DNA of 64,000 nt, from IMG/VR virus record IMGVR_UViG_3300014205_000172, positions 32,001 through 96,000 of that record, one strand, 5' to 3'. Below, in pieces: positions 6,332 through 61,808 of the stretch; position 1 is the first letter of the stretch, and each line of letters starts with the position of its first letter. Source of the DNA: a virus (taxonomy: Duplodnaviria; Caudoviricetes). The translations under genes and the position numbers were made by a program. A model generated the notes under the pieces. That model searched no databases. It was given only the letters and a program-made list of their open reading frames with translations, and was not told where the DNA came from.

Positions 6332-6366
6332 GCATAGAGCCCGGTCGCAATGACCGGGCTCTATGC
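6332..6366. repeat. CATA-stem-GCAAT-stem-TATG palindrome at a convergent gene junction
   Basis: GCATAGAGCCCGGTC-GCAAT-GACCGGGCTCTATGC, a perfect 15-bp stem. Confidence 0.85.
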
Positions 6367-27186: not shown

Positions 27187-27217
27187 CATACAGCTCGGCG
27201 CAATGCCGAGCTGTATG
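27187..27217. repeat. CATA-stem-GCAAT-stem-TATG palindrome
   Basis: CATACAGCTCGGC-GCAAT-GCCGAGCTGTATG at the end of the head operon. Confidence 0.85.
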
Positions 27218-27226
27218 CCGTATAAA

Positions 27227-27258
27227 TTCGATTTAACTTTTTTACAGTAACACATCAT
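27227..27258 (+). promoter_or_regulatory. putative phage early promoter, copy 1
   Basis: TTCGATTTAACTTTTTTACAGTAACACATCAT aligns without gaps to six other intergenic copies; the core resembles the phiKZ early TATATTAC motif. Confidence 0.65.
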
Positions 27259-27304
27259 TCGAGTGATCCGCCCCACATCTAGCATCGTTCTTTGGAGAAC
27301 ACAC

Positions 27305-28505: not shown

Positions 28506-28549
28506 GAGCCAGCCCTCAGGGGCTGGCTCACTACATCTCTCTTTTTTTT
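28506..28549 (+). terminator. intrinsic terminator
   Basis: GAGCCAGCCC-TCAG-GGGCTGGCTC followed by a pyrimidine/T-run. Confidence 0.75.
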
Positions 28550-28550
28550 G

Positions 28551-28582
28551 TATGACTCAAACTTTGATCACTCACACATTAC
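28551..28582 (+). promoter_or_regulatory. putative phage early promoter, copy 4
   Basis: TATGACTCAAACTTTGATCACTCACACATTAC. Confidence 0.55.
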
Positions 28583-36889: not shown

Positions 36890-36909
36890 ATGGGAGGGTA
36901 ACCTCCCAT
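36890..36909. repeat. GNRA-capped hairpin ATGGGAGG-GTAA-CCTCCCAT
   Basis: Same stem as the hairpin at 38657-38680; no T-run. Confidence 0.7.
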
Positions 36910-38656: not shown

Positions 38657-38680
38657 CCATGGGAGGGCGACCTCCCATGG
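38657..38680. repeat. GNRA-capped hairpin CCATGGGAGG-GCGA-CCTCCCATGG
   Basis: Perfect 10-bp stem, followed by TATG (38688-38691) and the terminase SD. Confidence 0.7.
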
Positions 38681-40873: not shown

Positions 40874-40908
40874 GCATACAGCCCGGCCGCAATGGCCGGG
40901 CTGTATGT
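40874..40908. repeat. CATA-stem-GCAAT-stem-TATG palindrome at a convergent junction
   Basis: GCATACAGCCCGGCC-GCAAT-GGCCGGGCTGTATGT. Confidence 0.85.
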
Positions 40909-49159: not shown

Positions 49160-49168
49160 CGTATCAAA

Positions 49169-49216
49169 CATGACGCCCAGCTTCGGCTGGGTATTATGCC
49201 ATCTTCTCTTTTTTTT
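49169..49216 (+). terminator. intrinsic terminator
   Basis: GCCCAGC-TTCG-GCTGGGT within CATGA...TTATG, followed by a T-run. Confidence 0.75.
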
Positions 49217-49259
49217 GTACTAAACTACACGCCTGTGTATCTTATGTTCGCCACCTAAT

Positions 49260-49615
49260 ACTTCTTGAGGAAGGGAAGGAAGGGGGTGGATTTTACGGAG
49301 TAAAATCCGGGGGTAGGTAGGGAAGGAGTAAGACGCATCCGCAGAGAGTCGAGCGAAGCGATGATGAACAAGGATATCTTTAGTCGACGAAGTCGACTAG
49401 GGAAGTTATTTTTAACATGATTAACAGATCCTATTTTCCAAGATAAAGAATTAGTTAACAATGGACTGGGAGAATACCCAGTCCCTTATGACGCAATAGA
49501 TCAAAGATACCATCAAAAGAACAAGAGAAGGGAGGTCTTCAACCTCCCGCTTTTATAAAGCAGATCAAGAACAGAATAAGGATGGAGGTTTACAACCTCC
49601 ACTTTTACAAACCAA
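49260..49615. other. structured non-coding element (G-runs, triloop hairpins, two direct repeats); candidate replication origin
   Basis: Longest non-coding gap in the window; purine-skewed; contains multiple palindromes (see findings). Function not established. Confidence 0.45.
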
Positions 49616-49645
49616 TGAGATGTTAACTTAATAGGAATCTTTCTG

Positions 49646-50224
49646 ATGGAAGCTTATTCGAAATTCTTGGGTGATGTATTTAATGCATCATCTTTGTCTG
49701 TTGAAGTTAAGTCTAAAGGTAAGTCTTTGAGTAAAGACGAAAGCAATGCCTTCGATGATTCTGAAATTGAAAATGATGGTATTCGTCTTGCTAGTGAACC
49801 TGGTCTACGTGAACAGGGTAATGTCATGATTGACCTCAAGTCCACTTCCAGTCAGTACCAAGACAATCTCCACTACGTGGCAGAGTCTTTGCGTAAGAGT
49901 GGATTCAAGGTACGCCTTCGGTACGAAGGCATCGACATGAGCCTTGAGAGTGTGTCTGATGGCATCATGCCAGGCAACATGTCACTCAATGGTAACAATG
50001 CAGTGAACAACGTGATGAACGGTGTTTACGTACCTGATTTCAAAGACACTGACTTGTTTAAGCAAGTGACGGTGATCCAACCACAAGACAACGCACCAGA
50101 AAATAAAGATGGTGTACTGTTCATGGTTGATGACGGTAATGGTGAGATGAGTAACTACCTGAAGGATGAAGGGTATCAGGTAGCCAGCGATGCTGAAACA
50201 TTGGAACTCCTGCTTTCAGCATAA
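49646..50224 (+). CDS. acidic hypothetical protein (192 aa), possibly head-associated
   Basis: AGGA SD; candidate protease sites SVE and SLE. Confidence 0.7.
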   Translation: MEAYSKFLGDVFNASSLSVEVKSKGKSLSKDESNAFDDSEIENDGIRLASEPGLREQGNVMIDLKSTSSQYQDNLHYVAESLRKSGFKVRLRYEGIDMSLESVSDGIMPGNMSLNGNNAVNNVMNGVYVPDFKDTDLFKQVTVIQPQDNAPENKDGVLFMVDDGNGEMSNYLKDEGYQVASDAETLELLLSA

Positions 50225-50269
50225 TGCAGCATAAAGACCGACGTGGAAAACCACGTCGATCCTCTGCAA

Positions 50270-50301
50270 TCTAATTGTAAATCCATACCGTCATACATTA
50301 C
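50270..50301 (+). promoter_or_regulatory. putative phage early promoter, copy 6 (antisense to the gene at 50327-51163)
   Basis: TCTAATTGTAAATCCATACCGTCATACATTAC; exact TACATTAC core, as in the chmA copy. Confidence 0.5.
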
Positions 50302-51223: not shown

Positions 51224-52228
51224 ATGACAACTGGTAACCTGATCCAAGCTCAAACCCGCAGCCTGACGTTCTACGCCGCTGGCGGTACCGCGGTCAACCT
51301 GTTGCGCGCCCACCGCTCGGATACGCCGAAGCACACTGATGCAATGGCTGATGAGAAGTACTGCTTCATCGACACCAGTATCGCTAACCTGCGTGACGTC
51401 ATCGAAGCCGATACTTTCGTTCTGGAAGGCACTGATGGTTCTGGTTCCGACCGTCCACGTAACGCCAAGGCTGTAATGGAAGCCATGCCGGCTATCCTGA
51501 ACCAATTCAAACCAGGCGATACCAACATCGTGATCTTCTCCGCCGCCGGCGGTACTGGTAGTGTGGCCGGTCCAATCATTCTGGAAGAACTGCTGAAGTC
51601 CAAGAAGAAAGTGTTTGCCATCGTCATCGGCACTCATGGTTCTCTCAAGGCTACCGCCAACACCATCGCTACCCTCACCGGCCTGGAAATGGCAGTGAAC
51701 CGCGTTGGGCGCTCCGTCGTCATGGCGTATCGTGAAAACGACCCTACCAAAAACAACGCCGGCAACAACGTTGTGCCGATGATGATCATGGAAGCCCTGT
51801 CCCTTCTCTGCTCCGGCAAGAACAACCAGCTGGACGGCGCCGACATTGGCAACATGATCGACTACCACACCGTTACTCACCACAAGCCTTCGCTGTCGAT
51901 GCTGGATGTATACGTCAACGAAGAGCAGCTGGTGAAAGAAAGCACCAATCCGATCGTACACATCGCACTGTTGCGTAACGAAGAAGCCATCACCCCGGCT
52001 ATCAATCCAGCCTATGGCAAGTCCGGCTATCTGCCAATGGAAGCCGCAGAACGCTACAAGGAGTCTTTCCACTTCGTAGTCAGCAATTCGCGTCTGAAGG
52101 GCGTGTTGTCTAACCTTCTGAAACGTCGTGAAGAACTGGAATCCGAACAGCGCGTAGTTGAGCGTCAAACCAGTCTTGTCGGTGATGGCGATGTCAAAGT
52201 CGATCAAGGCACCGGCCTGGTGTTCTAA
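51224..52228 (+). CDS. phuZ: phage tubulin PhuZ (spindle GTPase)
   Basis: YAAGGTAVNL, FIDTS, DGSGSDR, tubulin signature SAAGGTGSVAGP, T7-like QLDGADI, and a PhuZ-type C-terminus DQGTGLVF. Confidence 0.95.
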   Translation: MTTGNLIQAQTRSLTFYAAGGTAVNLLRAHRSDTPKHTDAMADEKYCFIDTSIANLRDVIEADTFVLEGTDGSGSDRPRNAKAVMEAMPAILNQFKPGDTNIVIFSAAGGTGSVAGPIILEELLKSKKKVFAIVIGTHGSLKATANTIATLTGLEMAVNRVGRSVVMAYRENDPTKNNAGNNVVPMMIMEALSLLCSGKNNQLDGADIGNMIDYHTVTHHKPSLSMLDVYVNEEQLVKESTNPIVHIALLRNEEAITPAINPAYGKSGYLPMEAAERYKESFHFVVSNSRLKGVLSNLLKRREELESEQRVVERQTSLVGDGDVKVDQGTGLVF

Positions 52229-60530: not shown

Positions 60531-60567
60531 CATACAGGCAGGGCGCAATGCCCTGCCTGTATTTATG
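60531..60567. repeat. CATA-stem-GCAAT-stem palindrome at a convergent junction
   Basis: C-ATACAGGCAGGGC-GCAAT-GCCCTGCCTGTAT-TTATG. Confidence 0.85.
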
Positions 60568-61776: not shown

Positions 61777-61808
61777 TACGATTCAAAGAATTGAAGATGA
61801 TACATTAC
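61777..61808 (+). promoter_or_regulatory. putative phage early promoter upstream of chmA, copy 7
   Basis: TACGATTCAAAGAATTGAAGATGATACATTAC; shares CGATTCAAAGAA with copy 3. Confidence 0.7.

Follow-up and report, generated by a model that had tools for sequence, protein, structure and literature searches.

Giant phages of the nucleus-forming type rely on polymerases of their own and replicate within a shell of protein. In phiKZ and 201phi2-1, cappable-seq has revealed small RNAs made by premature termination, some of them intergenic and others short RNAs that end at a terminator within the 5'UTR, with read-through into the gene (PMC10914365, PMC11512511). The phiKZ terminator, defined from mapped 3' ends, consists of a hairpin followed by YTTATKYYGT (PMC10914365), and the early promoter of this phage consists of a T-rich motif and an extended -10 (PMC8244752). 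A defined replication origin for nucleus-forming giant phages was not found in the literature, and the same is true of a priming site and of a packaging signal. Here we describe a non-coding element close to the tubulin gene of a further phage of this kind. In the reading that we favour, and to which we give about an even chance, it would be a rightward transcription unit on the plus strand that lacks an ORF and yields a small RNA or an attenuating leader.

The window analyzed, a stretch of 64,000 nucleotides, comprises bases 32001-96000 of a 237,171-bp IMG/VR virus record. It carries a phuZ tubulin gene at 51224-52228 (PHROG 4733, E 2e-75), and because PhuZ is encoded the phage is taken to be a nucleus-forming chimallivirus. 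Its PhuZ is at most 34% identical to that of any isolate and no DNA-level match to cultured phages was found, which places the phage at a distance from all cultured isolates. When compared with a close relative (L003), PhuZ shows 72% protein identity and the gene differs at 50% of its 4-fold sites, against 8-16% for its neighbours. This contrast points either to a mosaic exchange or to fast evolution that is limited to phuZ.

The element is housed in a gene-free gap of 486 bp (49160-49645), flanked on the left by an 84-aa plus-strand ORF and on the right by a 192-aa plus-strand ORF, beyond which lie a minus-strand DUF7484 gene and, further right, phuZ. Once a 68-aa minus-strand ORF (49255-49461) is discounted, no other gene-free gap in the genome is as long, by a crude ORF call. 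A small-protein gene was rejected because this ORF and all of the short ORFs differ between clades; those of at least 20 aa within the element differ in strand, frame and extent. No other copy of the element was found in the same genome, and a dispersed repeat or mobile element was rejected on that basis. A pattern search of IMG/VR for the element returned only the two known relatives and one chance match in a coding region, and a loose search with the pattern of its third hairpin returned unrelated terminators only. The 192-aa gene (49646-50224, plus strand) always lies 3' of the element. Nine metagenomic homologs of its product share 56 to 96% identity, but the protein has no family match in Pfam, PHROG or PADLOC, and no homolog was found in cultured phages. 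The AlphaFold model is poor (pLDDT 42), too poor for a structure search. In phiKZ, gp42 is a homolog of the DUF7484 protein with 30% identity, gp38 was rejected as a counterpart of the 192-aa protein because the two are unrelated, and the gaps near phuZ contain no element of a similar kind.

The earlier note on this DNA had described an origin-like element with symmetric G-runs around a hairpin, three c-GNA-g loops and a pair of direct repeats, and its motifs are found where it had placed them. Direct reading gives GGG at 49273-75, GGGGG at 49282-86, a T, the first hairpin, GGGGG at 49309-13 and GGG at 49320-22. The first hairpin, hp1 (49288-49308), has the sequence GGATTTTAC-GGA-GTAAAATCC, with a 9-bp stem and a GGA loop. 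It is followed by the mini-hairpin motif GCGAAGC (49353-59) and by hp2, in which an 8-bp core with a GAA loop, TAGTCGAC-GAA-GTCGACTA (49381-99), is extended at its base by G-U pairs and continues into the tail GGGAAGTTATTTTT; the whole of hp2 (49377-49413) is terminator-like. The 8-bp hairpin hp3, GGACTGGG-N6-CCCAGTCC (49463-84), carries the tail CTTATGACGCAATAGATC and extends to 49502. Two imperfect direct repeats of about 50 nt each begin with AAGAACA at 49517 and 49567, and each contains a GGAGGT/ACCTCC hairpin, hp4. Repeat 1 (49517-49566) holds GGGAGGT-CTTCA-ACCTCCC (49530-48) followed by GCTTTTAT, and repeat 2 (49567-49619) holds TGGAGGTT-TAC-AACCTCCA (49583-601) followed by CTTTTAC. All of these features were read on the plus strand.

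The clustering of hairpins is well above expectation. Between 49260 and 49615 there are five perfect hairpins whose stems measure 7 bp or more, whereas 2000 dinucleotide-preserving shuffles of the 356 nt contain 0.10 on average and never more than 2, and these five form the densest cluster among the 171 such hairpins of the 237-kb genome. Moreover, hp1 and hp2 are the only two long-stem hairpins with a c-GNA-g triloop in the genome. The heptamer GCGAAGC is expected about 14 times per strand by chance. In folding, each strand surpasses its shuffled versions by about 4 sd, which is to be expected of palindromes. Elsewhere in the window, hairpins with GNRA loops lie between consecutive plus-strand genes at 36890-36909 and 38657-38680, and their GGGAGG/CCTCCC stems use the same words as the stem of hp4.

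Conservation was examined at the DNA level in four sequences, the window and three relatives. The closest relative (L002/L003) is a 127-kb IMG/VR contig whose 192-aa protein is 96% identical to that of the window. The other two are a 248-kb phage (L004, 57%; L006 is identical to it in this region) and a 3.3-kb metagenome contig (L005, 60%); the contigs of homologs P0003-P0005, P0007, P0008 and P0010 lie outside the comparison. In all three relatives, the element is found upstream of the 192-aa gene, while the left-hand gene is different in each. This joint travel with the 192-aa gene would argue for a transcription unit. The order and spacing of the anchor sequences are also kept. TATGTTC, invariant in all four sequences, always lies 17 nt before ACTTCTTG, which is followed after exactly 68 nt by GTAAGACGCA (49328-49337), a block identical in all four. 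From there, 56-58 nt lead to GACGAAGTC, 14 nt to GGGAAGTTATTTTT and a variable 45-63 nt to hp3; 19 nt further on, ATAGATC is followed by hp4, ACCAAT[GT]AGATGT, 35 nt and the ATG.

The window and L002 differ at 3 of 356 nt (0.8%), compared with 8-16% of the 4-fold sites in the flanking genes and 50% in phuZ. Between L004 and L005, the 192-aa protein is 76% identical and 43% of 4-fold sites differ, yet the structured blocks are 96-100% identical: 60/60 for the arms and hp1, 33/33 for the hp2 block, 41/42 for the hp3 block and 53/55 for the hp4 zone. Loops and single-stranded parts are likewise invariant between these two sequences, while the AT-rich spacer between hp2 and hp3 shows only 54% identity. 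These comparisons show the element to be under very strong purifying selection. A recombination tract coinciding with the gap could mimic the result for the window and L002, but it is less likely that both comparisons are to be explained in this way.

The earlier note had named structural conservation in relatives as its check, and here hp1, hp2, hp3 and the symmetric G-runs are indeed kept, with compensatory changes. In hp1, the outer 7 bp are kept between clades with one compensatory change from T-A to C-G; the loop is remodelled in L004 and L005, and the GGA triloop is therefore lost there. The stem of hp2 is fully paired in each of the four sequences; it shows two compensatory double changes and, at its base, two C-G/U-G changes that keep the pairing on the plus strand only. 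Both the GAA loop and the tail GGGAAGTTATTTTT are invariant. The stem of hp3 is invariant, with a loop of 6 nt in one clade and 8 nt in the other. The stem of hp4 in repeat 2, the ortholog of the single copy in L004 and L005, covaries (T-A to C-G and G-C to T-A). GCGAAGC and the U-run after hp4 are not conserved across clades, and in L004 and L005 GCGAAGC is replaced by a GCGAGTGTAACG-type sequence. Consequently, only the GAA loop of hp2 survives as a conserved member of the three c-GNA-g loops. The direct repeats are present in the window but are a tandem duplication of the hp4 unit restricted to the window/L002 clade.

The four G-runs around hp1 proved to be part of a larger purine mirror repeat. 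The 5' arm (49267-49286) is 20 nt of pure purine and mirrors the 3' arm (49309-49328), which is composed of G, A and two T. The arms flank the T and hp1 and, when read outward, all 20 positions are G.G, A.A or T.A, a symmetry with a probability of about 1e-5 by arm shuffling. It is the longest repeat of its type in the genome, where the next is 11 nt. The window scores 20/20 and L002 scores 19/20, while L004 and L005 reach 18/19. In the other clade, six arm positions have changed on both arms and all are still allowed, and the T residues of the 3' arms stand opposite an A in five of five cases. G-run lengths are 2,3,2,5 / 5,2,3,2 in the window and 3,4,1,5 / 5,1,3,3 in L004 and L005, so that the tracts of at least three G are GGG/GGGGG and GGGGG/GGG in the former and GGGG/GGGGG and GGGGG/GGG(+GGG) in the latter. 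The total length of arms and hairpin is kept exactly: in L004 each arm is 1 nt shorter and the hairpin is 2 nt longer.

Of all 60-nt windows in the genome, the one with the top G4Hunter score (1.32) is located here, 75 nt upstream of the AT-rich spacer. The canonical quadruplex pattern G3+N1-7 does not apply because the central loop is 22 nt, and the motif fits only if one long, hairpin-containing loop is permitted. As a sequence pattern, however, four tracts of at least three G around a stable stem, kept in the relatives, correspond to a long-loop quadruplex-duplex hybrid. Quadruplex folding in ViennaRNA was uninformative because the model limits loop length. The pattern also corresponds to H-DNA in being a purine mirror repeat that obeys G.G, A.A and T.A, although its spacer of 22-24 nt is atypically long, even if it is itself a hairpin. 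Antiparallel G.G, A.A and T.A triplets are the purine-motif triplex code of H-DNA, and RNA is reported not to form that triplex (PMC4666352). The same symmetry would result from an antiparallel quadruplex of the chair type in which the hairpin forms the central loop. Antiparallel fold-back pairing of G and the chair-type quadruplex are DNA-type topologies. In the same genome, a gene-free gap of 313 nt (G000:C1:208047-208359, window-scale 176047-176359) follows the same module of UUCG hairpin and T-run; it ranks second in the genome both for its 60-nt G4Hunter value (1.18) and for its purine mirror repeat (11 nt, G5 arms, spacer of 24), and it shares no sequence similarity with the element near phuZ.

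Downstream of hp2 lies the AT-rich spacer (49404-49462), whose A+T content of 78% is the maximum for any 59-nt window in the genome. In the relatives, the spacer remains at 71-82% A+T and varies in length from 41 to 59 nt, with an identity of only 45-55%. An AT-rich tract adjoining a structured region is also a feature of origins, and the juxtaposition of an AT maximum with a G maximum looks origin-like.

Transcription signals bracket the element. The operon upstream ends in the terminator T1 (49176-49198), whose hairpin CCCAGC-TTCG-GCTGGG is followed by TATTATGCC; T1 is conserved in L002, L004 and L005, and a T8-GTA run follows it at 49209-49219. Against YTTATKYYGT, a score of 8/10 is reached by the T1 tail ATTATGCCAT, by the hp3 tail CTTATGACGC and by the hp3 tail of L004, TGTATGTCGC. 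The hp3 tail has the form TATG(A/T)CGC and is shared with at least nine other terminators of the genome, while no TATG-type tail was found on the minus strand of hp3. T1 (49176-98) and hp3 (49463-94) thus appear to fit phiKZ-type terminators on the plus strand only. The hairpins hp1, hp2 and hp4 are without a TTATG tail; a terminator scan nevertheless picked up hp2 with its invariant U-rich tail. No ORF precedes hp3. On the minus strand, a terminator follows the DUF7484 gene at about 50239-50258, and transcription from this gene appears to stop before it reaches the element. T1 and hp3 are two plus-strand terminators 270 nt apart, and in the window, L002, L004 and L005 no conserved ORF is found between them, so that a plus-strand transcript should either start between them or leak through T1.

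The signals for initiation are less distinct. The module of hairpin, TATG and T-run recurs genome-wide, and in several copies an early-promoter core of the ATACATTAC type lies 20-25 nt downstream. No canonical ATACATTAC core was found before the element. At that spacing lies the conserved block TATCTTATGTTC (49238-49249, plus strand), a candidate start signal that matches the core only loosely, so that the transcript start is a putative one. A de novo promoter motif search returned generic AT-rich words only, and Rfam gave only a chance-level match to L20_leader on the minus strand (E 0.64). Closer to the 192-aa gene, the block ACCAATGAGATGTTAAC precedes the ATG by 35 nt in each of the four sequences, with 74-85% identity between sequences, and together with a weak SD (49611-49645) probably serves as the proximal promoter and leader of this gene.

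Several related signals were noted elsewhere in the genome. Modules of a hairpin and TATG(C/T/A) number about 80, many of them at convergent gene ends as CATA...TATG palindromes. Palindromic hairpins of this kind with stems of 13-15 bp occur at 6332-6366, 27187-27217, 40875-40907 and 60532-60562, mostly between convergent genes; they fit the phiKZ motif on both strands and are therefore probably bidirectional terminators. Cores of the ATACATTAC type, which resemble the phiKZ early promoter, are found at 28542-28582, 50294-50301 and 61801-61808, some with a T8 run 20-25 nt upstream. Additionally, three near-identical copies of TT(C)GATTTAACTTTTTTACAGTnAnACATCA directly follow terminators (27225-27260 and, at window scale, 183360-183395 and 200280-200313) and constitute a distinct promoter-like class. 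Downstream of an early-promoter-like site, a gene-free gap of 419 nt (G000:C1:217676-218094, window-scale 185676-186094) contains two terminators 280 nt apart, each a hairpin with TTTATGC, and probably represents one or two further ORF-less transcription units.

If the element is a transcription unit, transcripts of the upstream operon would stop at T1, with its hairpin, TTATGCC and T8 run, and a new transcript would begin in the conserved block around 49238-49249. This transcript would pass through the purine arms and hp1 and meet staged stops at the U-run of hp2 (about 165 nt), at the TTATG tail of hp3 (about 245 nt) and, in the window lineage, at the two copies of hp4. The 192-aa gene would then be expressed by read-through or from the proximal promoter at 49611-49627, and the unit would give rise to an abundant, G-rich structured RNA, serve as an attenuating leader or do both. 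We infer both that the element has its own transcription start and that RNA rather than DNA is its functional form. As in premature-termination sRNAs, no SD-bearing ORF lies between the putative start and the terminator, an arrangement kept in the three relatives. Against this reading stand the mirror-symmetric purine arms, which have no obvious explanation in RNA, the invariance of loops and single strands between L004 and L005, which exceeds that of most structured RNAs, and the missing canonical early-promoter core and Rfam family. For the mirror repeat and the AT extreme, an explanation in terms of DNA is the better one.

The most serious alternative, although we regard it as only a possible one, is a cis element that acts as DNA, most plausibly a site where replication starts or is primed and which transcription activates. 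In this account, rightward transcription would pass through a region whose non-template strand is rich in G, and an R-loop or G-loop would remain. The mirror repeat would adopt the form of H-DNA or of an antiparallel quadruplex, in which hp1 would be the loop, and the AT tract would melt as an unwinding element. The maintenance of the genome's longest mirror repeat through two-arm changes in the other clade speaks for such a mechanism, as does a triplet code that belongs to H-DNA and excludes RNA (PMC4666352). It also accommodates the most AT-rich 59 nt of the genome 75 nt downstream, where AT-richness is kept and sequence and length are not, the top G4Hunter window, the only two long c-GNA-g hairpins and, by the crude ORF call, the longest gene-free gap, and near-invariance is expected of a site recognized through both protein and structure. 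However, cumulative GC skew, another check named in the earlier note, has no turning point at the element and its extremes lie elsewhere; since the skew follows gene orientation, it does not help with the origin question. No iterons or repeated protein-binding words were found beyond the lineage-specific duplication of 50 nt. The spacer of 22-24 nt is long for classical H-DNA, the T residues in the 3' arm mean that only one H-DNA isomer is possible, and hp2, hp3 and hp4 are RNA-type terminator signals that an origin does not need. The proposal of the earlier note that the element serves as an origin, packaging signal or anchor is therefore met halfway: conservation, the mirror repeat and the AT tract agree with it, while the single conserved c-GNA-g loop, the skew, the lack of iterons and the bracketing terminators do not. 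The narrower claim that replication in this chimallivirus clade starts or is primed at the element, a transcription-opened mirror repeat beside an AT unwinding tract, is slightly less probable than the DNA-level reading as a whole. The two phiKZ-type terminators favour a transcribed unit no less strongly than an element that acts purely as DNA. The two accounts can also be combined, as transcription through a G-rich non-template strand loads R-loop or G-loop origins elsewhere.

Other readings are less probable. The element might act on the 192-aa gene in cis only, as a long leader or attenuator whose RNA has no function of its own, with hp2, hp3 and hp4 as conditional terminators and the G-rich region as a domain that senses a protein or ligand. 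The strict linkage to this gene in all relatives compared and the series of terminator-like hairpins before it agree with such a role, as do the two modes of read-through at phiKZ 5'UTR terminators (PMC10914365). In both clades, moreover, CCACC (49252-56) can pair with GGTGG (49285-89) in competition with hp1. This alternative pairing shows no covariation, however, Rfam contains no riboswitch match, and the block at 49611-49627 looks like a separate proximal promoter, so that the 192-aa gene may not depend on read-through; we therefore consider a leader of this kind unlikely. A pac signal or a centromere-like anchor tied to the nearby phuZ is much less probable again. In all relatives compared, a distance of 1.6 kb separates the element from phuZ; the element is also extremely invariant, and its G-tracts around a T/A-rich core presumably recall terminase recognition sites, all of which would favour a role of this kind. 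On the other hand, there is no TubR-like gene, there are no iteron arrays, related giant phages have no defined termini and, to our knowledge, PhuZ systems do not use a centromere. A type III toxin-antitoxin-like repeat RNA or an RNA sponge for CsrA/RsmA is scarcely credible. The former was suggested by the two tandem repeats of about 50 nt directly before a gene of about 190 aa; a toxIN-like system was rejected because the repeat is single-copy in L004 and L005 and no ToxN, AbiQ, Pfam or PADLOC match was found. The latter was suggested by the highest GGA count in the genome (16 per 400 nt, 7 per 70 nt). A sponge of the CsrB/RsmZ type was rejected in turn: GGA occurs 15-16 times in the window element and 9 times in L004 and L005 against 7-8 expected from composition, the GGA loop of hp1 is lost in L004 and L005, and Rfam gave no CsrB/Rsm match.

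Whichever account holds, no other non-coding locus in this genome is as extreme as the element, which remains near-invariant while the adjacent gene drifts to 76% protein identity. It joins RNA-type signals, the terminators, with the structural logic of DNA in the mirror repeat and the AT tract, and is a compact and testable candidate for a new class of phage regulatory RNA or for a transcription-coupled origin. Its conserved mirror symmetry would be a rare natural case of selection on a pairing code other than that of Watson and Crick. If the origin reading is true, this would be the first replication start defined for the chimallivirus group.

Among the known systems with which the element may be compared, the promoters of the N4 virion RNA polymerase are hairpins with a stem of 5-7 bp and a purine loop of 3 nt. 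The c-GGA-g and c-GAA-g triloops of hp1 and hp2, stable in DNA, presumably recall these promoters, but the stems of the element are longer, the loop of hp1 is not conserved, and chimalliviruses use multisubunit RNA polymerases rather than an N4-type enzyme. The layout of a candidate start, a G-rich non-template strand and an AT-rich tract is similar to that of T4 oriF/oriG, the T7 primary origin, ColE1 RNA II and mitochondrial CSB II. Such transcription-primed origins are without internal terminators, which the element has; it is also without a GC-skew signal. With H-DNA it shares mirror-symmetric purine arms that obey G.G, A.A and T.A, whereas the classical spacer is a few nt rather than 22-24 nt. 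The likeness to a chair-type quadruplex-duplex hybrid such as that of the thrombin aptamer lies in G-blocks that face G-blocks and in a duplex stem within the central loop, although the fold is predicted and the canonical G3+N1-7 pattern does not apply.

The closest resemblance to the favoured transcription unit is found in the premature-termination RNAs of phiKZ and 201phi2-1 (Putzeys et al., 2024). These also lack an ORF, follow a terminator and precede a gene, and they likewise end in the clade's own hairpin with a TTAT-type tail, measure less than 250 nt and are kept among related giant phages. The element, described here at the level of sequence, has neither sequence nor Rfam similarity to them and differs in its serial terminators and in the missing canonical early-promoter core. 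A mirror repeat and a genome-extreme AT tract have not been described for those RNAs, and, unlike them, the element is conserved far above the adjacent protein. None of the known phage small RNAs has been described as combining a conserved purine mirror symmetry around a hairpin with conservation that far exceeds that of the neighbouring gene. With the phiKZ terminator, in contrast, T1 and hp3 share a GC-rich hairpin and an 8/10 tail, and the same module is used throughout the genome.
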